32,000 nucleotides of DNA from Candidatus Harpocratesius repetitus (lineage in GTDB: Archaea; Asgardarchaeota; Lokiarchaeia; Sigyniarchaeales; Promethearchaeaceae), in assembly GCA_021498095.1 (NCBI GenBank), contig JAIZWK010000001.1, forward strand, positions 1,890,001-1,922,000. The letters are read 5' to 3'. The first letter of the stretch is position 1. The number at the start of each line of letters is the position of its first letter. Below are positions 1-17,814 of the stretch, piece by piece. The notes under the pieces were generated by a model. It had not been told where the DNA came from and made no database searches. It saw only the letters and a list, made by a program, of their open reading frames with translations. Made by a program: the position numbers and the translations under genes.

Positions 1-97
1 CTTTTTTGATTTTGCCTTGTTTATTAACCGTAGTTTTCACAAGGTCTAAGACTTTAGTTTTAAGAGCATCCGGAATTTCTATATCGATGTAGGACAT
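1..97 (-). CDS. rpl7ae: 50S ribosomal protein L7Ae, 5' part only (runs off the window start)
   Basis: Not in the ORF track. Manual translation from ATG at 97: MSYIDIEIPDALKTKVLDLVKTTVNKQGKIKK(G), matching the archaeal L7Ae N-terminus that leads into GKIKKGxNE. SD-like GAGGTTGA at 112-105. Confidence 0.85.
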   Translation of the reverse strand, partial: MSYIDIEIPDALKTKVLDLVKTTVNKQGKIKK

Positions 98-104
98 TTG
101 TGTG

Positions 105-171
105 TCAACCTCATTCAAAGTTGCCTAAAAGGGCTTCTTATCATTATTTCATCGGTTAAACGCATTTAACC
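105..171 (-). promoter_or_regulatory. Candidate kink-turn / alternative hairpin in the rpl7ae 5' leader
   Basis: Minus-strand RNA UAACC-GAU-GA-A (158-148) can pair with U-GA-GGUUG (113-106): C-stem, 3-nt bulge, tandem G.A pairs. The non-bulged strand is the SD. A perfect hairpin GGUUAAA-UGCG-UUUAACC (171-154) competes for the same AACC. Confidence 0.5.
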
Positions 172-271
172 AATAAAAGAGCAAAAGCAACGTAAAAATA
201 AAATTTTTCGGTTTGGTTATACTTATTTTAACACTGATAAAATAAATAAGAGAAAGAATAAATCCTTTTTC

Positions 272-1198
272 TTATTTTTCTTCTTCTTCATCTTCTGGGA
301 AAATTCTCTTCGCACATTCTGGACAAAGAGAGTGGGTGAACTTAATATTTGAAATCGAAGAAATATATGATTCAATTTGATTCCAATATCCATCATCAGT
401 GCGAACTTTTTTACAGCTTGCGCATATGGGGATCATACTTTTAAGTTTATCAACTTCAAATTCTTTCTGTTTTTTCTCTGTTATATCGACATTACTTGCT
501 CGAATCCCCATGAATTCTCCCGTTTCTGAAATTATTTTAGTAGCAGTATGTGCAATCCAAACAATTTTGCCTGATTTACTTTTAATTCTAAATTCAATTG
601 TTTTTTTATTAAGAGAAAAAAAATTATGAAATAATGGAAGATCTTCAGGGAAAATAATTCGATCTAAAATATTTGGATCTGCATACCCTTCTTCTGGAGT
701 ATATCCTGTGATTGTTTCAAACGAAGGTGATATATACAGAAATCCTTTGATTGGGTGGTACCAATATTCCCAATTAACTGTATATTCGATAAAAAGGCGA
801 AATTTTTCTTCTGATTTAGCAATTTTTTCAAAATTTTCTGCGTTTTGTAAACTGAGTGCTAATACTTTAGTAACTAGAAGTGCAGGGGTAAGATATCGCT
901 TGCGATATTCTGGAAACTTGAAATCTTTCATATAAATAAATCCGAAATGATGTTCATTCCTTTTTATTGGGATAATTAATGCTGTTTCGTTCAATATCCA
1001 CACAAATGGTGTATTTTCAAGTTCACGACAGTGAGATTTTAAGTCTTCTGGAAGTTTCTTATAAAATTCAATAATTTTTGGTGCAAAAAGCATTTGAAAA
1101 ACTTCCTTGCTTTTTTTCAAAATGTTATCTTTTTTTGCAAATTGAGTGATTTTTGTAATCATATCTAATACAAATGCAAAGTCTGCAATCTGGTTCAA
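272..1198 (-). CDS. PAS/PAC sensor protein with an N-terminal GAF-like remnant and a C-terminal CxxC...HxxCxxC motif
   Basis: PAS signature (NWEYW...YISPSFETITGY...EFRIKSKSGKIVWI...GIRASNVDITEKK). The tail IPICASCKKVRTDDGYWNQIESYI...FTHSLCPECA is a conserved Cys-rich terminus familiar from anaerobe sensor proteins. No kinase domain. The TTG start is uncertain. Confidence 0.8.
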   Translation of the reverse strand: MNQIADFAFVLDMITKITQFAKKDNILKKSKEVFQMLFAPKIIEFYKKLPEDLKSHCRELENTPFVWILNETALIIPIKRNEHHFGFIYMKDFKFPEYRKRYLTPALLVTKVLALSLQNAENFEKIAKSEEKFRLFIEYTVNWEYWYHPIKGFLYISPSFETITGYTPEEGYADPNILDRIIFPEDLPLFHNFFSLNKKTIEFRIKSKSGKIVWIAHTATKIISETGEFMGIRASNVDITEKKQKEFEVDKLKSMIPICASCKKVRTDDGYWNQIESYISSISNIKFTHSLCPECAKRIFPEDEEEEK

Positions 1199-6101: not shown

Positions 6102-9100
6102 ATGTCTCTGAAAGAAAGAATCCCTAAAATTTATGAGCATTATGGCCTTTCTGAAGCTGAATTAGATGTTTATACAGTAATTTTAAAATATACGCAAGTA
6201 ACAGTTTCAGAAATTGCAGGAATTTTGAATAAAAACAATTTAATGGAAATTCAACCAATTGTGGATAAATTAGAGCAGTTAAAATTCATTCATAAAATTC
6301 CTGGAATAGTAGATCGATATATTCCCCTCGAACCTTATTTAGAACTATTTGAAAAGGAAGCGCTACATTTTCGAGATGTTATTTCTGAAATAAAAGACAA
6401 TGTTTTAAGCGATCAAGCTTCACGATTTGAAAATTTAGAGGATAGTGAAAATTCAACCACTGAACAAGTGAATTCATATGTTGAAACTCAAATTTCTGAT
6501 GTTTTTCGAGAAAGTGATCAACAAGATGTTGAGAAAAAGACTTTAATAGAAAATGCCATTAATCGATATACTGAAACAAGTAAATCATTAGAACAGCAAA
6601 TTGAACAATCTACTTTTCAAGCAAGAGATCAATTTGAATCCACTCGTGTGGAATACACTGAAAAGGTTAAAAATACTACAGAAAATGCAAGAGATAGATT
6701 AAAAGAATCTTGTAAAAATTTAGAAGATGAAATTCAAAAGGGACTGTTTTTAGCTAGAGATCGATTTCAAGAAACTACTTCTAAAGTAGAAGATGAAATC
6801 CAAACTATCATGTATAATAGTCGAGATCGTTATGAAAAAACATCATTAGACTTAGAAAAAGATTTACATGAGCATATCGATCATAATTATGATCAATTTA
6901 AAACTGCAGTTAATTCACATGATACACAAGTAAATCAGATAATAGATGATCACATTACCAAGTTTAAAACAGATAAAGATAATTTTAATGCTCAAATCGA
7001 TGATTTCACCACTTCACATAAAACTCAATATCAAGAATTTGAAGTTGAAATGCATGGAATGATTGATGAATTAAATCAAGATCTAAAGCAAATTGCTGAA
7101 GAGTTTAAACAAACTTATGATAACACTACAGTAGATCACAAAAATACATGGAACCAAATTGTTGATGATATTTTGAAAGATTTTTCTGAGCGTGTTGATT
7201 CTTTAGAAAATGAGTGCAAACAACAATTGGATGAACATGTGGAATTACATAAAGAAAATGTCTCTGAACTGCATCCAAAAGTGAAGGAAACACTAGAAAA
7301 ATACCTAATGCGGATGAAGAATGTAGTTGATGATCTAAAAAATGAGTTTTCTAATTTGCTTACTAATCAAATTGAAAATAATAAGCTTTATACTGAAAAA
7401 ATTCAAAATGATATAAAAGAAAGAGTCGAAACACGCCACAGTGAATTAGCTGGTCAAGTACTTGCTTTCAAAAATGCTGCCATAGAATTGATGGATAATC
7501 TTAAAGATACAAGCGATCGATATGAAGGTTTGGCTCATGATCTTGCAAAACGCGGTAGTGCATGGAAAGCTTTGCTTTTTGGTAAACATAAGAAATTCTT
7601 AGAAAACTATAAAGAAATCCAAGAAAGAGTTGGAAAAATATCAGGTTCAATGAAAGCAAATTTTGAAGAAAGTACTGCTAATTATATCCAAAAAACAGGA
7701 GAAACAACCACTCAAATTAAAGAAGATATTGATTCGATTATCTCAACAGAAGTTCAAAAAATGACTTCAGATATAAAAGCTTTAGACACAAAACAAAAAG
7801 AAACATTGGGATTAGAATTAGGTGATCTTGCTCATGATCTTAATGAAGAAACCACATTACTTTTCCAAACTAATGTTGAACATTGTCAAACAACAACGAC
7901 TCAGCTTAAAGATAAGTTAGAAAATTCTCTACATACTCATCATGATGATTTTGAATTAGCTTTTAATAAACACAGACAAAATGTTCTTAAATTCAGCGAT
8001 GAAAGTAATTCAACTGCTAACGGCAAAATTGATCAATGGTATACTTCAATAGATTCTCGCCATGCATCTGGAAAACAAAAAGTTACTGGTATTGTGCAAG
8101 CACATGATCAGAATGTGGCAAATTACAAGCAACAAGTTATTTCTAACAATAATGAACATACAACATTATTAGCTACTGAAATGAGTGAATTCAAAAACCA
8201 ACAAAGGAAAGTATATGACACGCAACTTGATACCATTCGAAAGGATTTTGATTCAACTAAACAGACAATTTCTCAAAGTTTGCATAATCAAATTCAGCTT
8301 ATCAAAGACGATGTTCACAATTTAAATTCCATGCAACATCAAAAATTAGATGAACAAATTCAGCTGGTTAAAACAGAATTTGAAAAATTAAATGATTTAC
8401 AACATCAAAAATTAGATGAAGAAATTGCACTTTTTACAGAAGAAGTTGCTCAAATTAATAAGGTTCAACAAGAACAGATTGATAATCATATTGCTAAATT
8501 TAAAGAAATTATCCAATCACTTGATACAAAGCAAAAGAATGATATTGATTCACAAATTTCGTTAGTTACTGAAGAGTTTAACAAATTAGAGAATGATCTT
8601 CATGTGTTGTTAGAAAAACGGAAAGCTGATTATCAAGAAAAACTTAACAATTTGAAAACCGACTTGATTAAAACAATTCATGAAAACATCCAAGACACAA
8701 AGGATGCTATTGCTGATTTCACGCTTAACTTTATGAATTCAATTGATGAAGCAGTTGAAATTGCCGAAGAAGATGTAGATGAATTAAGTGCGATCAGTGA
8801 AGCTTCTCGCAACGTTCCTTCTTTAGGTCGAAGTGCAACTTGGCATGTATTTGGAACACAAGCATTAATTGAATCTATAATTGCTTCAATGAAACGAACA
8901 AAAAGCACCATAACAATCATTACTCCAACTGTAGAACCAAAAGTATTGGAAGCACTTTCACAAGTCGCTTATGAGAAGAAATCCGCGCGATTTTTATATA
9001 CTACAAATTGGGATTTAGGAAAATATGGTCCTATTGTTGAAAAAATGAAAGTTTTCGGAAATATTCAATTTAGGAATCTGAAAGGTGCTAACGACTTTTA

Positions 9101-9254
9101 TGCATTAGCTCGTGATGGTGAAGAAATTGTTCTCTGTCCTAAAGCCAAAGATGAAAAAGATCTTATTGCTATTGTTTCAATATTAGAAGGCTATGCACAG
9201 ATTTTCGGCAGTTTTATTTATCCAATATTCCAAGCCAATTCACGACCTATATAA
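6102..9254 (+). CDS. Giant TrmB-like protein: N-terminal wHTH, ~830-aa helical/coiled-coil rod, C-terminal TrmB/PLD-like domain
   Basis: N-terminus GLSEAELDVYTVIL...TVSEIAGIL...LEQLKFI...RYIPLEP (TrmB HTH). C-terminus WHVFGTQALIESIIASMKRTKSTITIITP...DGEEIVLCP (TrmB effector-like). The middle is Q/E/K-rich helix without ATPase motifs. Confidence 0.75.
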   Translation: MSLKERIPKIYEHYGLSEAELDVYTVILKYTQVTVSEIAGILNKNNLMEIQPIVDKLEQLKFIHKIPGIVDRYIPLEPYLELFEKEALHFRDVISEIKDNVLSDQASRFENLEDSENSTTEQVNSYVETQISDVFRESDQQDVEKKTLIENAINRYTETSKSLEQQIEQSTFQARDQFESTRVEYTEKVKNTTENARDRLKESCKNLEDEIQKGLFLARDRFQETTSKVEDEIQTIMYNSRDRYEKTSLDLEKDLHEHIDHNYDQFKTAVNSHDTQVNQIIDDHITKFKTDKDNFNAQIDDFTTSHKTQYQEFEVEMHGMIDELNQDLKQIAEEFKQTYDNTTVDHKNTWNQIVDDILKDFSERVDSLENECKQQLDEHVELHKENVSELHPKVKETLEKYLMRMKNVVDDLKNEFSNLLTNQIENNKLYTEKIQNDIKERVETRHSELAGQVLAFKNAAIELMDNLKDTSDRYEGLAHDLAKRGSAWKALLFGKHKKFLENYKEIQERVGKISGSMKANFEESTANYIQKTGETTTQIKEDIDSIISTEVQKMTSDIKALDTKQKETLGLELGDLAHDLNEETTLLFQTNVEHCQTTTTQLKDKLENSLHTHHDDFELAFNKHRQNVLKFSDESNSTANGKIDQWYTSIDSRHASGKQKVTGIVQAHDQNVANYKQQVISNNNEHTTLLATEMSEFKNQQRKVYDTQLDTIRKDFDSTKQTISQSLHNQIQLIKDDVHNLNSMQHQKLDEQIQLVKTEFEKLNDLQHQKLDEEIALFTEEVAQINKVQQEQIDNHIAKFKEIIQSLDTKQKNDIDSQISLVTEEFNKLENDLHVLLEKRKADYQEKLNNLKTDLIKTIHENIQDTKDAIADFTLNFMNSIDEAVEIAEEDVDELSAISEASRNVPSLGRSATWHVFGTQALIESIIASMKRTKSTITIITPTVEPKVLEALSQVAYEKKSARFLYTTNWDLGKYGPIVEKMKVFGNIQFRNLKGANDFYALARDGEEIVLCPKAKDEKDLIAIVSILEGYAQIFGSFIYPIFQANSRPI
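6621..6884 (+). repeat. Intragenic 66-bp (22-aa) tandem repeats, block 1
   Basis: ARDQFESTRVEYTEKVKNTTEN / ARDRLKESCKNLEDEIQKGLFL / ARDRFQETTSKVEDEIQTIMYN / SRDRYEKTSLDLEKDLHEHIDH, starting at 6621, 6687, 6753 and 6819. Confidence 0.8.
8289..8618 (+). repeat. Intragenic 66-bp (22-aa) tandem repeats, block 2
   Basis: QIQLIKDDVHNLNSMQHQKLDE / QIQLVKTEFEKLNDLQHQKLDE / EIALFTEEVAQINKVQQEQIDN / HIAKFKEIIQSLDTKQKNDIDS / QISLVTEEFNKLENDLHVLLEK. DNA similarity is visible (caacatcaaaaattagatgaa occurs twice, 66 bp apart). Confidence 0.85.
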
Positions 9255-11111: not shown

Positions 11112-13448
11112 TTATGAGTGTAAAGACTTTTTGTTAGAATCTTTTTGCTTAATTGATGTAAGGACTTGTTTTAACTGGTCAATTGTATAAGGTTTTTTCA
11201 AAAATCCATCAAATCCATACTCTCTAAAATTTGCAATTATAGGATCCGTAGAATAACCGCTTGAAACAATAACAGGTATGGTTGAATCGACCTCTTTTAT
11301 CATTTGAACTATTGTTTCACCACCTACATCTCCTGGAATAGTAAGATCAGTAATGATCACATCAAAAATTTCATTTGAATCTAAGGATTTTTTTAATTGA
11401 ATCAAAGTTTCTTTACTGGAATAAACAGATACTAAATTTATTCCTAGATGATCGCAAAATCGTTGCATAATATTATGAATTGATTTATCATCATCGAGGA
11501 AAAGAATTTTTTTAATTTGCATGATTGGTAACAAGGATTTTGGAGAAGACGCAGAGATTTGCTGCTTTTTTAATATTGGTAATAAAATAAGGAACACGGT
11601 TCCTTCATGCTCAATTGAACGAAATGTTAGAAAACCTTCATGATTTTTAATAATTGAATAAGCTGTGGCTAAACCTAATCCTGATCCTGTGGGTTTAGTT
11701 GAAAAATATGGTTCAAATATGTGCTTTTGAAGATCATTAGGAATTCCTTCTCCAGTATCTTCAATTTCAATCTGAATATATTCTCCTGGTGTTAAAGGAA
11801 TGACATCATCGTATGAAATTTTCACCGTATGGGCTCTAACATATAAATTTCCTCCATTAGGCATCGCTTGGAGTGCATTTATCACTAAATTATTAATTAC
11901 CTGCGACACTTGAATTCCATCAATCTGAGTATTAGGTAGATTTTTCGAAATTTCAAAATGATACTTTACTTTTGATCCCCTAAGAACAAATTTCGTAGTA
12001 TCATAAAGAATGTCTTTAATTGATTCAAATTTTTTAACTGGAACTCCACCTTTTGAGAATGTTAAAAGTTGATTTGTCAAATCTCTTGCTCTAAATGTTG
12101 CTTTTTCTAAATCCGCTAACAATTCTGAATTCTCTTTATTTTCTTGTTTTTTACAGTTCAATTGTAAAAGATTAATTGTTCCTAAAATACTTGTCAATAT
12201 ATTGTTAAAATCATGAGCAATTCCTCCAGCTAAAAGACCAATTGATTCAATTTTTTCTCTATGGATCTGTTCTTCAATTTCTCGTTTTCGACGTGAAATA
12301 TCCCGAATTATTGCTGTAGCATTAATCACTTTATTTCCTTTATATGAAAATCTGGAATTAATTTCAACGAAAATTTTCTCACCGTTCTTTTTAATCATTT
12401 CAATCTCATAGAAAGTTCGAGTTAGGTGACCTGAAAATTTAAGATCTCCCATTTTATCCATGCGATCCCAATATTGATTATCAACAAATTCTCGAAAGTC
12501 ATGACCAATCATCTCATTCCGAGAATAACCCAATATTTCTTCACAAGCAGGGTTAATTTCGATTACAATACGCTCTGTATTAACCAAAATAATCATGTCG
12601 CTTGCATCTTCAACAATTTTGCGATATTCATTTGCCTTATCTTCTGCAATTGCTTCTGCTAATTTTTGTGCTGTAATATCTCGAAATGTGGTTAAATATT
12701 CTCCTTGACCAATTTTTATTTCTTCTAATATTGCCCATTTTATTTCTCCATTATGGCATACAATTTGTCGTTCACGGGCAATATCTGATGAATCTTGATG
12801 TTTATCTCCTTCTACTTTGACTTGTGCTCTGTATTTTGGATCAGGATATGCCAATTCGATCCATTTTTGATTATTAGGGATATCTTTAAGGGTATAACCA
12901 AAAGTTTCTTCAAATTTTTTATTTACATATAATATTTCTTGATTTTGATTTGAAATCACAAGAGGAATAGGTAAATGATGAACAATTCGTTGATAACGCT
13001 CTTGTGTTTGTTTCAGAGATTGTTGTGTTTGGAATTTTTCTGAAATATCTTCTAAAATAGTTATAAAATATTCTTCTGATATTGGAATATCTTGGAAAAT
13101 AATTGATTTGATTGTTCCATTTTTACATTTTACATGTTGTAATCTTTTAGGTGTTGTATCTTCGAGTATCTTATTAAAGTGGTTTAGAATTTCAGGAATT
13201 GTATCTTGAATTATCTTTCGGTAATCTTCTTCAGGATATGCTTGTTCTTCCCACATTTTTGTCGTTGAAACATCTTCTAGTGTATAACCTAATAAAATTG
13301 TAAATTGAGGATTTACATATAAATTATGATCTTCCTTATCTGAAATGACCGCAGCATAAGGAAATTTGCTTAAAAAGTATTTTATAGCCTCAAATGATGG
13401 ATTTGATTTATTCATCGTAAATAGTTTCCTTATTTTTTGCAGAATCAA
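11112..13448 (-). CDS. Cytoplasmic hybrid histidine kinase: 3 PAS + HisKA + HATPase + receiver
   Basis: H-box LAGGIAHDFNNIL, N-box QVINNLVINALQAM, DTGEGI, FEPYFSTK, GSGLGL. Receiver LFLDDD...TDLTIPG...SGY...KPY. Three YVN/IN PAS starts. The start could be ATG 13415. Confidence 0.93.
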   Translation of the reverse strand: MILQKIRKLFTMNKSNPSFEAIKYFLSKFPYAAVISDKEDHNLYVNPQFTILLGYTLEDVSTTKMWEEQAYPEEDYRKIIQDTIPEILNHFNKILEDTTPKRLQHVKCKNGTIKSIIFQDIPISEEYFITILEDISEKFQTQQSLKQTQERYQRIVHHLPIPLVISNQNQEILYVNKKFEETFGYTLKDIPNNQKWIELAYPDPKYRAQVKVEGDKHQDSSDIARERQIVCHNGEIKWAILEEIKIGQGEYLTTFRDITAQKLAEAIAEDKANEYRKIVEDASDMIILVNTERIVIEINPACEEILGYSRNEMIGHDFREFVDNQYWDRMDKMGDLKFSGHLTRTFYEIEMIKKNGEKIFVEINSRFSYKGNKVINATAIIRDISRRKREIEEQIHREKIESIGLLAGGIAHDFNNILTSILGTINLLQLNCKKQENKENSELLADLEKATFRARDLTNQLLTFSKGGVPVKKFESIKDILYDTTKFVLRGSKVKYHFEISKNLPNTQIDGIQVSQVINNLVINALQAMPNGGNLYVRAHTVKISYDDVIPLTPGEYIQIEIEDTGEGIPNDLQKHIFEPYFSTKPTGSGLGLATAYSIIKNHEGFLTFRSIEHEGTVFLILLPILKKQQISASSPKSLLPIMQIKKILFLDDDKSIHNIMQRFCDHLGINLVSVYSSKETLIQLKKSLDSNEIFDVIITDLTIPGDVGGETIVQMIKEVDSTIPVIVSSGYSTDPIIANFREYGFDGFLKKPYTIDQLKQVLTSIKQKDSNKKSLHS

Positions 13449-13671: not shown

Positions 13672-14982
13672 TTGGATATGATCTCAAATCTTCGGGGAAA
13701 TCCATCGGCTACCACCGATATCGGAAAAATTATTCCCAATCAGATTAATCCACAGTTACTTTTAGATATTGCGGAAGTGGTAGATCCTTTGGTTTCCCAA
13801 AAATTGCCTCAGAAGCGAAGTGGATTTTCCTACACCATCTTCGTTTTATTTGCATGTTGTATGCAAATTTTAAGACTTTCGCCCCGACACACATCAGAAA
13901 TTTTCCAAGAAAAGTGTTCTCGCGCTCAAATTTCATTTCAATCCTACTCAGGTACCAAATTTTCAAATGGCAAACAACGGAGATTCTTCCCTGATCAACC
14001 TGCTTTTTCTCGATGTCTCCAAACCTTGTCTAAGTTAGATTTAGTTGAAGAATTTTGGAATTCTGTACTTTTAACACATATATTAATTCTCAAATCTTTG
14101 AAAATTGTAGGTTCAGATCTAAAGTTAATAGCAGATTATACTGATACACCGTGCAAGAAAAATGAAGACGATCCATATTGTTTCGGAAAAAAAGAAGGTA
14201 AAACAGTTCATCGAACGCTTAGTTTTTCCGTTATTTCAGGTGATTTTCATCAAATGATTGCTAATTTCAAGATTAAAAAGCGTCAAGATAAACTCCTCTT
14301 GTTTCACAATGTCCATGAGATGCTAATTTCTAACTGCTTTTCCATAAAATATGTTATGCTTGACAGAGGTTTTTATCGTAAACGAATACTAAAGTTCTTT
14401 CAGCGGAAGCACATAACCGTGATTATGCCAGGAAGAAAATGTACGCAGACAAAACAAAAAATTATGAACTAATTGAATGGAATTGGCAAAAAATACTGCA
14501 AAGGTGTAATTAAGGGTAAATACGTAAAAAAAGAGGGGTTTTCACCCATTAAATTCGATCTTCTGCTTGTTGCTAAACGCAGATTTAATTTAAAAGAAAT
14601 CATTCAAGATTTTAATCAAAAAAAGATCAGTGAACAAGTCGCCAGCAGCCGTATTTTTCCCCTAATTGTTATGTTCTGCTCAAAATCAGGCATAAAAACC
14701 CTACACGGCAATGAGAATTATATCCGAGATCTTTATCGCCAGAGATGGTTGATAGAAATCGCATTTCGTGAAATGAATCGGTTAGGTATTGCACAAAAGG
14801 TGCAAGATCGCAATATCCGGCTGAATATTATGGGAATGCGGTGCTTCTTGTACAATATATGGCAGACACAACGATTTCTAACAAAGAAAAGCGATCCTTC
14901 TGCAGCAGATTTAGAATTGAATGAATTTCTTAGAAAAATCATGCATAATTTACGCATTTACCAACATTCCATCCAAATTTAA
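13672..14982 (+). mobile_element. IS4-superfamily (ISH3-like) DDE transposase, interrupted by an in-frame TAA at 14470-14472
   Basis: Two consecutive same-frame ORFs (266 + 169 aa). Catalytic-type motifs IADYT, MLDRGFY and the IS4-type YRQRWLIEIAFR. Terminal inverted repeats not confidently found. Confidence 0.85.
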
Positions 14983-15321
14983 AATTTGTCGATCAGAAAT
15001 TTAGAACTTTTTTTATCAAGTTCAACTATAATTTGATTAAAAATAGTCAAAAATCGACCCATAATTATATTTTCTAAAGTTCATTTTTGCCGACTGAAAT
15101 AATTCTTGGATAAGTTTGATTATTGTCGGAAGATGAAAGATTAAAATTGGAATTCTGTCAAAAATAAAGAAGTTGCTAGAACCTCATAAATTCTTAAAAT
15201 GAAATAATTCCTTACTTTTATAATTTTTAATCGTCTTTTTTTTAAGAGATTTATACAAAACAAAATTAATTCATAATATTTTTACCATCAAATTACTATT
15301 TATCTTTTGGTGCTATATAAA

Positions 15322-16047
15322 ATGGAAAACAATAAAGCAATTCAAGTTAATGACGGTATATATTGGGTTGGATTTGGAGATCCTAAAGCAGGTTTTTCTA
15401 ATAATCCATACTTGCTGATTGAAGGCGATTCGGTTGTTTTATTTGATCCTGGCTCACGTCTTCCAGAACATTTTAATATTGTTAAACAGAAAATCGAATC
15501 CGTTATTCCAATAGAGAAAATTAATTATATCGTTGTTCATCATCAAGATCCAGATTTGGCCGCTTCAATTCCCTTATTTGAAGATATTATTGGCGTGGAT
15601 AATTTTGAGATAATTTCCACTCTTAGAACCTCATTACTTTTACCATATTATGGATTTCGTACAGAAATCACAACAATTGAAGATGGGGATATCTTACAAT
15701 TAGATAACGGAAGAGAATTGATGTTTATTACATCTCCCTATCTTCATTTTGCAGGTGCGCATGTCTCATATGATATGAAGACAAAAACGCTCTTTTCTAG
15801 CGATATTTTTGCTGCCTTTTCAGTAGATTGGCATCTATATGCTAATGAAAATTACATCGAAGCCATGCGGATATTTCATGAACCATATATTGCACATAAG
15901 TCTGCTATAGAAAGTTTTGCAAATAAAATCAAGGATTTCGAAATTAAAATGATCTGTCCGCAACATGGATCAATTATCAAAGAAGAATTTATTCCAAAGT
16001 GTGTTGAAGCACTTTTAAATTTCGAGGTGGGGTCATGGCTGATTTAA
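15322..16047 (+). CDS. Stand-alone MBL-fold di-iron protein, ODP (oxygen-binding di-iron protein)-like
   Basis: HHQDPDL in place of HxHxDH, PYLHFAG, LFSSDIF, ICPQHG, and NPYLLIEGD...LFDPG. No flavodoxin domain, so not FprA. Start ATG 15322 preferred. Confidence 0.85.
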   Translation: MENNKAIQVNDGIYWVGFGDPKAGFSNNPYLLIEGDSVVLFDPGSRLPEHFNIVKQKIESVIPIEKINYIVVHHQDPDLAASIPLFEDIIGVDNFEIISTLRTSLLLPYYGFRTEITTIEDGDILQLDNGRELMFITSPYLHFAGAHVSYDMKTKTLFSSDIFAAFSVDWHLYANENYIEAMRIFHEPYIAHKSAIESFANKIKDFEIKMICPQHGSIIKEEFIPKCVEALLNFEVGSWLI

Positions 16048-16370
16048 ATTTAGATGATAAAAAACTAATGGATTTTATAAATTTAATGGTCACCCGTGGA
16101 TTAGGTTTATACGGACAGGAATTAATGGCTAAAATTTGCTATGAATCTGGTATTGCTTTAACTGATCAGAATGAAATTGACTGGTTAGAAGATAATCACA
16201 TTCAAGCAGTGAATAAACTACTTGTTAATTATGGTTCTCGTAATCTTCCTGCAAAAATGACAGCTATTGTATTAGCCAGACAAAATCAAATTCCTGTACC
16301 AGAAGAATTATTGACGAAGAGAAGCTCAAAAAAGAGAAGAAGTATTTTCAAGCGATTTCGGAGAAAATAA
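16035..16370 (+). CDS. Small hypothetical helical protein coupled to the ODP gene
   Basis: Strong SD GAGGTG, 13-nt overlap with the ODP gene end, protein-like composition, basic C-tail. Confidence 0.8.
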   Translation: MADLNLDDKKLMDFINLMVTRGLGLYGQELMAKICYESGIALTDQNEIDWLEDNHIQAVNKLLVNYGSRNLPAKMTAIVLARQNQIPVPEELLTKRSSKKRRSIFKRFRRK

Positions 16371-16465
16371 TATTTCAACAGAATATATTAAATATTTATA
16401 ATTTTTTTTAATTCAATTTATTTTTTTAACCATTTTAATTAAAGTTATTATAGGAACTACTTGCA

Positions 16466-17713
16466 ATGCATCAAAAATACCAAGTCGAAAAAGCTTTTGT
16501 ATTTGACCAATACGGCTTAGCTAAAGTTATGTTTGATTTTAACCAAAATCAATTGGTACTTGATGAAATCCTCTTATCTGGATTTCTAAGTGCTATTGAT
16601 GGTTTTTCTCAAAATATTTTCCAGAATAAATCCAGTCATTTTGTTATTGATACTGGTTCACAAAAAATTTCTCTATTCAAATCTGAAGGATTGATTATTG
16701 CTATAATCTCAGATCAAGATTTAATATTATATAAAGATCAAATTCTCTCCCTTCTTTCTTATTTTGCTTCAAATTATCCAATAGATTCAAATTCACGCCA
16801 AGATCCAGAACTATATGAAGATTTTAAAATTAAGCTTATCTATATTTTATTTCAAAAACCAATCTCAGTGGATTGGATTCCTGTTTTAGATATTAATGAT
16901 CAAAATATATCAGAATGGAAGCATCTTCAACAAAAATTCCCAATATTAACAGAAGTCGATGGTAAAACAGAGATCCAAAATCTTCCAGGGTTTTCTCGAG
17001 ATCAAGAACAGACTATTTTAGAAGTTTTTAATTATTGTTCCTATCAACAAATGCTACATTTTGATATGATGATTGAAGAACGCGATTATGTATGTGGAAG
17101 CGAAAAGCTTATTGATCTTCTTAATGGCAAATCGAATGAATATAAAATTTTAAAAAACAAATATCAAAGCTTTGAATTCATCGATCTATTATCTGATTTA
17201 AAATCTCATCAAGCAGTATTTCGATTACAATCTAAATATGGTAAAGATATCTTGGATGTTCTTAATGGTTTAGAGCAATCCGGATATATTATATTGATTC
17301 CTGATAACCAACGTAAAATTTTGCTGCTAGTTGATTTAGTTGAAGAATTTTTACAAATTTTACAGTCAATAGTTAAACCAAAGAAATTTTCCGTAGATCT
17401 TCGCTTTTTACTAGATAAGTTAGATTTTCCTGAAATTACTTCTCGCATTCAAATTGATTCACGCCCAATTTGGATAAAAAAGGATGATATATTGAGCCAA
17501 TATTCAACTCCTAACGAAATGGCTCATTTCATGGATATTTGGATTACATTTGAGCGTACATTGGTTGATTTCTATTATTCAAAATATAAACGACAATTGA
17601 ATACAATAATACATGAAAAACTGATTAATCATTATCTTAATATTATTCATCCGCAAGATTTGAATATTTTAAATCCGTTTTTGACAGCAATTGAGGGTGC
17701 CTGCTTAGATTAA
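16466..17713 (+). CDS. Longin-like N-terminal domain protein with probable winged-helix modules
   Basis: KAFVFDQYGL...DEILLSGFLSAIDGFSQNIF...LIIAIISD fits the longin pattern common in Asgard archaea. DWIPVL...ILTEVDGKTEIQNL resembles the post-longin DG-xx-I helical module. Confidence 0.65.
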   Translation: MHQKYQVEKAFVFDQYGLAKVMFDFNQNQLVLDEILLSGFLSAIDGFSQNIFQNKSSHFVIDTGSQKISLFKSEGLIIAIISDQDLILYKDQILSLLSYFASNYPIDSNSRQDPELYEDFKIKLIYILFQKPISVDWIPVLDINDQNISEWKHLQQKFPILTEVDGKTEIQNLPGFSRDQEQTILEVFNYCSYQQMLHFDMMIEERDYVCGSEKLIDLLNGKSNEYKILKNKYQSFEFIDLLSDLKSHQAVFRLQSKYGKDILDVLNGLEQSGYIILIPDNQRKILLLVDLVEEFLQILQSIVKPKKFSVDLRFLLDKLDFPEITSRIQIDSRPIWIKKDDILSQYSTPNEMAHFMDIWITFERTLVDFYYSKYKRQLNTIIHEKLINHYLNIIHPQDLNILNPFLTAIEGACLD

Positions 17714-17749
17714 CTTATCTAATAAAAAGTTAATTAATGATTAAAGCAA

Positions 17750-17771
17750 TATCTTGCAGAAATGCAAGATA
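17750..17771. other. Perfect 9-bp inverted repeat with a GAAA centre (hairpin or operator)
   Basis: TATCTTGCA-GAAA-TGCAAGATA between the longin gene stop and the PAP2 gene, just upstream of a TTTATATA box. Confidence 0.55.
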
Positions 17772-17814
17772 CCTTAAGCTAATTTTTATATAGTTTCTTG
17801 ATGAATAAATATTT

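Follow-up and report, generated by a model that had tools for sequence, protein, structure and literature searches.

The Treponema denticola ODP (TDE2498) is an oxygen sensor that is genetically coupled to a soluble chemoreceptor, TDE2496 (bioRxiv 10.1101/2020.03.11.986844). In eukaryotes, NPRL2 and NPRL3 (Npr2 and Npr3 in yeast) are the longin subunits of GATOR1/SEACIT, the GTPase-activating protein (GAP) for the Rag GTPases, and GAP-type longins carry a GP motif ahead of strand 2 together with an arginine finger, Arg78 in NPRL2 (PMC12290439). Related proteins have been reported from Asgard archaea. The main text of the preprint by Liu et al. (bioRxiv 10.1101/2020.10.19.343400) describes NPRL2-like proteins, composed of a longin and an NPRL2-type C-terminal part and assigned to asCOG families, in most Thor and a few Loki metagenome-assembled genomes, and an ‘NPRL2-like longin domain’ is among the enriched families of Lokiarchaeum ossiferum (PMC9834061). 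Here we analyse a window of 32,000 nt from Candidatus Harpocratesius repetitus (contig JAIZWK010000001.1, positions 1,890,001 to 1,922,000 of the forward strand). Three co-oriented genes at positions 15322–17713 of the window encode a stand-alone ODP (gene A), a small protein (gene B) and a protein with a predicted longin domain followed by winged-helix-like modules (gene C). We put at roughly one in two the probability that this triad encodes an O2/Fe(II) sensor that is docked, via B, onto a longin scaffold belonging to a GTPase-linked family.

Gene A (15322–16047, + strand; 241 aa from an ATG) encodes a true stand-alone ODP. Its product matched Pfam family PF19583 with an E-value of 8.9e-55 and 186 bits (cut-off 27.2), against 26.8 bits for the generic metallo-β-lactamase (MBL) family Lactamase_B, and its best PDB matches were the ODPs 6qrq (E 5.6e-25) and 6qnm (E 1.4e-18), with flavodiiron proteins scoring no better than 3e-14. 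The ODP domain spans residues 26–216, and a Pfam scan detected neither a flavodoxin nor any further domain in the protein. In the alignments with 6qrq and 6qnm, both solved ODPs share residues H74-Q75-D76-P77-D78, H142, D161 and H215; across 23 Asgard homologues H74, Q75, D76, D78, H142, D161 and H215 are invariant, with P77 present in 90% or more of the rows. In the printed alignment, gene A and the solved ODPs read HQDPD where the flavodiiron protein 4dik_A has H-T-E-P-D. The initial annotation had assigned gene A to the ODPs rather than to FprA or the hydrolases, an assignment that the profile scores, the PDB ranking and the motif all bear out. Judged by its intact ligand set, the di-iron centre is predicted to bind O2 and/or Fe(II). 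A TTG further upstream, at 15307, is a less probable start, given that the alignments of homologues begin at residue 1–5.

In Pfam family, ligand set and HQDPD motif, as well as in standing alone at approximately 240 aa without a flavodoxin domain, gene A resembles the bacterial ODP sensors (TDE2498, 6qnm and 6qrq), and in both cases a signalling partner is encoded alongside the ODP or fused to it. Its nearest longer relatives, at 43–55% identity, are bacterial proteins in which an N-terminal ODP is fused to a class III nucleotidyl cyclase or to GGDEF and receiver domains, suggesting that ODP domains of this subtype serve as signalling inputs. The partners differ, however. In bacteria the partner is a chemoreceptor, a cyclase or a GGDEF enzyme, whereas here, in an archaeal host, it would be the small Asgard-only protein B together with the longin/winged-helix protein C. 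The bacterial fusions form large families (P0056-P0175) from Spirochaetes, Abyssobacteria and others, with ODP–cyclase proteins of about 545 aa and ODP–GGDEF–receiver proteins of 575–677 aa, and a conserved linker domain of 120–140 aa without known fold lies between the ODP and the output domain. A third bacterial group of about 580 aa combines the ODP with approximately 340 aa that belong to no Pfam family.

The distribution of the three genes was surveyed in 400 Asgard genomes. A close ODP was present in 26 genomes, always as a single copy, gene A being the sole ODP of its own genome. About 25 of these 26 genomes hold the triad, in at least seven GTDB families, in the order A-B-C or C-A-B and between unrelated flanks. 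B adjoins the ODP by sequence in 21 of the 26; in one more (G016), from a family of four genomes with a very divergent B (f13), profile comparison gave the order C-ODP-B, with probabilities of 97% and 96.5%. When the fetched loci were searched with tblastn, 26 non-redundant ODP-B loci were compared, and the ODP gene lies directly upstream of B in every case and mostly overlaps it, its end falling between −12 and +39 nt from the B start. B and C are adjacent in all loci. The order ODP-B-C was found for all six C homologues whose contigs were looked up, including that of L. ossiferum, each time with unrelated neighbours; Thor- and Helarchaeota contigs show the same order, and one divergent contig reads C-ODP-B. 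The triad therefore recurs widely in Asgard genomes amid differing flanks, as the initial annotation had implied in treating the three genes as a module. Its distribution is nevertheless patchy, the triad being absent from the other two genomes of the window's genus. In the cultured L. ossiferum, the triad genes are NEF87_004971, NEF87_004972 and their upstream neighbour.

Genes A and B share 13 nt (16035–16047), gene B running from 16035 to 16370 on the + strand and encoding 111 aa. A Shine–Dalgarno-like GAGGTGGGG (16024–16032, + strand), read from the sequence, lies inside the end of gene A, 2 nt ahead of the gene B ATG. The overlap, this site and the short gaps in related loci make up a pattern that fits translational coupling. 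The coordinates and the overlap are as the initial annotation gave them. Co-folding of the ODP with B, using alignments for both, returned an ipSAE of 0.50 (0.50, 0.54 and 0.39 in individual runs), compared with 0.01 for the best control; the pLDDT of the partner was at least 79 and at least 91% of contacts were common to the runs. In the calibration of this method, 58 of 80 solved complexes scored at or above the mark, as did 2 of 110 mismatched pairs. Passing scores of 0.60 or below comprised only seven of the 80 solved complexes together with both passing mismatches, and such a pass is more often wrong unless the pairing is already likely. Since the strict adjacency of ODP and B makes their pairing likely beforehand, we take the co-fold as modest support for a contact between the two proteins, which we infer from the model.

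By its sequence, gene B belongs to a new and tiny family confined to Asgard archaea. Only 30 clusters at 50% identity emerged when 1.84 billion representatives were searched with a profile, and neither Pfam nor NCBIfam contained a family that matched it. Identity among relatives is 55–76% for B where C shows 37–60%. The core (aa 1–92; 16035–16310, + strand) is a conserved, predominantly helical domain with a small hairpin in the model (pLDDT 86.6) and carries the motifs RGLGLYG, NLPAKMTAIVLAR and IPVP. The tail (aa 93–111 and the stop codon; 16311–16370, + strand) is polybasic, K/R-rich with Phe and predicted to be disordered, as judged from the alignment, a charge count (+11 net) and low pLDDT. 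It is kept in ODP-linked B proteins and was absent from three GTPase-linked B copies that were inspected, two of them free and one fused. Searches of solved structures gave no Foldseek match to B at E ≤0.001 and a best VIA Z of 6.2. The N-terminal subdomain of H-NOX was considered as the fold of B and rejected, its Z of 5.6 being background for helical proteins. A weak AlphaFold DB match had raised the possibility that B is homologous to the C-terminus of C itself, for which hhalign found nothing. Nor did B match the linkers of the ODP fusions: comparisons with a 120-aa ODP–cyclase linker and with an ODP protein of 581 aa gave nothing, either by single sequences or by a 28-row alignment. In a shape search of the Atlas, a cluster of 369-aa bacterial ODP-family proteins came closest to B (TM 0.66 over 98 residues), an unverified lead for which the matched region was not reported. 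Pfam searches of longer B-containing proteins yielded nothing informative. In one giant protein of 2303 aa (P0203), three B-like stretches are found close to residue 2050, and the protein also contains a DUF6242 domain.

Gene C (16466–17713, + strand) encodes 415 aa. An AlphaFold2 model built from the homologue alignment (mean pLDDT 80.8) points to an arrangement of three parts, all on the + strand: a longin domain (aa 1–135; 16466–16870), two winged-helix-like modules recognized by their helix/strand pattern (aa 136–285; 16871–17320) and a C-terminal helical bundle (aa 286–415 and the stop codon; 17321–17713). The longin part follows the order β-β-α-β-β-β-α-α in the model, with strands at residues 7–14, 19–24, 57–62, 67–73 and 76–82 and helices at 34–53, 87–103 and 114–128. 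VIA-align superposed it on the VAMP7 longin with Z 11.5 and a root-mean-square deviation (rmsd) of 2.8 over 117 residues, the pLDDT of residues 28–51 (helix 1) being below 50, and Z values of 10–11 were obtained with Sec22b, TRAPP and sigma-adaptins. The longin matches that ranked highest among the Foldseek candidates came out on top again when 48,161 chains were searched without bias. These comparisons uphold the initial call of a longin fold at the N-terminus of the modelled protein, which is also the most conserved stretch of the C family. Further along, residues 131–202 match 8hkr_B (Z 7.9) and residues 206–279 match region 114–177 of PriA 6dgd_A (Z 7.3, rmsd 2.5), which we take to be the PriA winged-helix domain. 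Apart from a weak winged-helix match (MCM4_WHD, residues 227–285, E 0.27), gene C had no Pfam family at E up to 1 and no NCBIfam family, and only nine sequence relatives were found in the first search.

When the full-length model of C was used in Foldseek, all ten matches with E below 0.001 were chains of GATOR1 or SEA-complex entries, taken by their chain length as NPRL2, NPRL3 or the yeast counterparts. These matches spanned 340–400 columns, with E-values from 7.9e-7 (the best, over 346 columns) to 8e-4. In VIA, two NPRL3 chains scored Z 8.5–9.6 over 231–265 residues and a SEA-complex chain scored Z 7.6 over 266 residues; the TM scores of the full-length alignments were 0.23–0.26. The C-terminal bundle is inside the full-length alignments to NPRL3/Npr proteins (8fw5_C 6..409; 8adl_S 6..407). 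At the level of the modelled fold, C appears to have an NPRL2/NPRL3-like layout, in which an N-terminal longin is followed by winged-helix-containing parts, and to this extent the comparison drawn in the initial annotation finds support; at the sequence level, no match to the NPR2/NPR3 families was obtained. A link to small GTPases is a further likeness, which for the C family runs through the sister modules of B and C described below. NPRL2 and NPRL3 work with a paralogous longin subunit, DEPDC5 and the Rag GTPases, whereas the putative partners of C are B and the ODP, and the GTPase of the sister modules is of the Ras family. This genome contains only one full-length C homologue. At the triad loci, to which the search for DEPDC5 was confined, there is neither a DEPDC5-like nor a second NPRL-like gene.

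B was found in 78 of the 400 Asgard genomes, and it also occurs apart from the ODP. Within a single GTDB family (f31, which the names encountered place in Thorarchaeia), B-like sequences are present in 63 of 89 genomes; few are found in the window's own family. The f31 copies examined that lack an adjacent ODP either follow a gene for a C-like protein or form the C-terminal part of a fusion with it, of 519–531 aa, and a fusion in the reverse order, B::longin, exists as P0176. Fusions of B and C in both orders argue that the two proteins bind each other. At about 43 of 53 ODP-less loci, a Ras-family GTPase gene (171–174 aa; PF00071, E 1e-41 to 1e-46) is located no more than 210 nt downstream of C-B on the same strand; loci without a near GTPase mostly have short flanks, or a GTPase gene 1.4–3.5 kb away. 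The GTPase of these sister modules matches Ras with E 1e-46, as against 2e-4 at best for Gtr1/RagA. No locus has both an ODP and a GTPase beside B. In a tree of C proteins, which was read by clades only with its label statistics unused, the A-B-C type is set apart (support 97/88) from a clade that contains one C-ODP-B protein and all of the GTPase-linked ones (99/97). The B/C family is GTPase-associated in one branch and ODP-associated in others.

Several variations on this organization were seen. In some Thorarchaeial genomes, 3 kb separate an ODP-B-C triad from a C-B-GTPase module, and in one such locus (L046, 9958–12274) the C-like gene is split into open reading frames (ORFs) of 167 and 282 aa. 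Another locus (L055, 2470–5564) has two tandem C-B units ahead of one GTPase gene, and many f31 genomes have one fused and one unfused C-B-GTPase module.

In the reading that we favour, and to which as a whole we give about even odds, A, B and C would form one signalling assembly. The ODP would be the sensor, binding O2 and/or Fe(II) at its di-iron centre. B, made in step with the ODP by translational coupling, would dock on it and also bind C, and its polybasic tail may anchor the complex at the membrane. C would be the scaffold or output subunit, with its longin, tandem winged-helix and helical-bundle parts. The output would most likely involve a small GTPase whose gene lies elsewhere in the genome and which either is controlled by the assembly or controls it, because the ODP-less copies of B and C are encoded with a Ras-like GTPase.

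A number of observations weigh against this reading. The binding of O2 or iron is here a prediction, and the co-fold of the ODP with B was a weak pass only. No GTPase gene adjoins any ODP-type triad, and the 28 Ras-like genes of this genome all lie at least 85 kb from the locus. Furthermore, the GTPase-linked copies all come from f31 and the A-B-C-type C proteins form a separate clade, so that the transfer of function from one type to the other is an extrapolation. The link to a small GTPase that had been proposed for this locus has indirect backing from the gene neighbourhoods of the ODP-less sister modules, not from those of the ODP-type triads, and the GTPase in question is Ras-like rather than Rag-like. 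With regard to C, the full-length structural alignments had a high rmsd (7.6–12.8), and no sequence-level match to NPR2 or NPR3 was obtained with Pfam or with a nine-homologue profile run against the PDB, which at E up to 10 returned chance matches only. In place of the GP motif and the arginine finger that NPRL2/NPRL3 have, the C family shows a conserved G17 and P19 in the form G-x-P (the window protein itself reads G-L-A) and has no arginine conserved throughout the family; K/R72 is kept in 11 of 11 rows of the ODP-linked A-B-C clade.

The same gene arrangements can be read differently, with the ODP replacing the GTPase as a two-state switch on the C-B platform. Oxy and deoxy, or iron-loaded and apo, forms would then stand in for the GTP and GDP states, no GTPase would take part, and the output would pass via the winged-helix and helical parts of C to another partner. 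The gene orders (C-B-GTPase as opposed to C-ODP-B or ODP-B-C) and the finding that ODP and GTPase are never both beside B favour such a swap. So does Arg66 (YGxR), which is kept in 43 of 48 rows of the second C clade, where 46 of 48 rows are GTPase-linked, and is variable in the A-B-C clade; the score of the ODP-B co-fold relative to its best control is a weak argument in the same direction. However, the two positions are not equivalent, the ODP gene being upstream of B with an overlap and the GTPase gene downstream, and we regard a swap as rather doubtful. We are equally tentative about a related proposal, in which a longin platform otherwise paired with a Ras-like GTPase has taken on the ODP as its switch subunit, and B is a new adaptor fold that may also be joined to ODP in bacteria. 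If this proposal is correct, Asgard archaea would feed their oxygen or iron status directly into a GATOR1-like module via B, and the triad would be an early prokaryotic counterpart, ancestral in kind, of the nutrient and stress sensing that lies upstream of longin/GTPase signalling.

Winged-helix proteins of archaea mostly act as transcription factors, and the triad might instead be an oxygen/iron-responsive transcription regulator in which C binds DNA by its winged helices, the longin receives the signal from ODP and B, and the tail of B, with its high positive charge, aids nucleic-acid binding. An annotation as ArsR-family regulator is attached to one structural relative of C, and HTH_47 or TrmB occurs in about half of the members of the Atlas clusters that look like C. 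Yet C is acidic throughout (pI ~5), the first winged-helix module having a net charge of −9, and the winged-helix modules of NPRL2/3 serve protein contacts. In addition, no conserved target or flanking genes accompany the triad, and it is GTPases rather than regulated operons that accompany the sister modules, which makes a role in transcription improbable. An enzymatic or iron-handling function, with the ODP scavenging O2, NO or peroxide, or storing or delivering iron, and with B and C as assembly, targeting or protective partners, would suit a Lokiarchaeial host that is probably an oxygen-sensitive anaerobe, and ODPs share their di-iron MBL core with the flavodiiron O2/NO reductases. Nevertheless, gene A has no domain for electron input, whether a flavodoxin or another, and the triad is not accompanied by any redox partner gene. 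Its motif is the ODP-type HQDPD, not the H-x-E-x-D-H of the reductases, its closest fused relatives are signalling enzymes, and a separate flavodiiron-like gene (a 419-aa frame) is present elsewhere in the genome. We consider such a function highly improbable.

The initial annotation knew of no description of a combination of this kind. Text searches, with most subscription journals outside their scope, found no paper linking ODP with Asgard archaea, and the main text of the Liu et al. preprint mentions no ODP, lactamase or di-iron protein, no B-type partner and no C-B-GTPase operon. The claim appears to hold for the association of ODP with B and has to be narrowed for C, since Asgard NPRL2-like longins are already published. 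The published family is probably the C family: as far as the main text describes it, its domain organization is alike, and its spread over most Thor and a few Loki genomes matches the distribution of B and C. What appears to be new is the combination of ODP, B and C, together with the occurrence of B and C without an ODP, adjacent or fused, usually with a Ras-family GTPase; ODP sensing and Asgard NPRL2-like longins were known. The same preprint text describes a conserved Asgard operon that encodes a Roadblock (LAMTOR1-like) protein, a Rab-like GTPase and a DENN protein. Like the C-B-GTPase modules, this operon joins a regulator of the longin/roadblock superfamily, a small partner and a Ras-superfamily GTPase. 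B is helical, however, and does not have the roadblock fold, and C aligns with DENN proteins only by its longin part, DENND1B and C9orf72-SMCR8 matching residues 1–130 only.

Asgard genomes contain hundreds of longin, roadblock and small-GTPase genes, and the triad ties one such family to a type of sensor with known ligand chemistry (O2, Fe(II)). The Thorarchaeial C-B-GTPase operons provide a matched system for a GAP, guanine-nucleotide exchange factor or scaffold role of archaeal NPRL2-like longins. A putative dedicated O2 sensor that is joined to eukaryote-like parts is of interest for how the archaeal forebears of eukaryotes dealt with oxygen, even if its output should not be a GTPase.

The spacer between genes B and C (16371–16465, + strand; 95 nt) is AT-rich and, as read from the sequence, contains runs of T9 and T8. 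It may represent a partial archaeal terminator or an internal promoter; in the former case, leaky termination at the T runs after gene B could keep the dose of C below that of ODP and B. AT-rich DNA also follows gene C (17714–17814). The genome that holds the triad is a single contig of 4.36 Mb with 30% G+C, the window encodes the archaeal proteins S6e and aIF5B, and the closest named relative of the triad proteins is a sequence from Candidatus Harpocratesius (Lokiarchaeia) at 87% identity.

Upstream of the triad, a gene on the − strand (11112–13448) encodes a hybrid PAS-PAS-HisKA-HATPase-receiver histidine kinase. A similar hybrid kinase lies near the triad at one other locus (L004, 8079–10298, − strand), beside a Roadblock and Arf/Ras fusion protein. 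The kinase was considered as part of the unit and rejected, as it is absent from all loci other than these two. Between the kinase gene and the ODP operon, a DDE transposase gene (13672–14982, + strand; weak PF01609 matches on both halves) is divided by a single in-frame TAA (14470–14472) into ORFs of 266 and 169 aa, and may be either an insertion sequence pseudogene or a case of read-through. Further upstream (6102–9254, + strand), a protein of 1050 aa has an N-terminal TrmB winged helix followed by a long apolipoprotein-like helical region.

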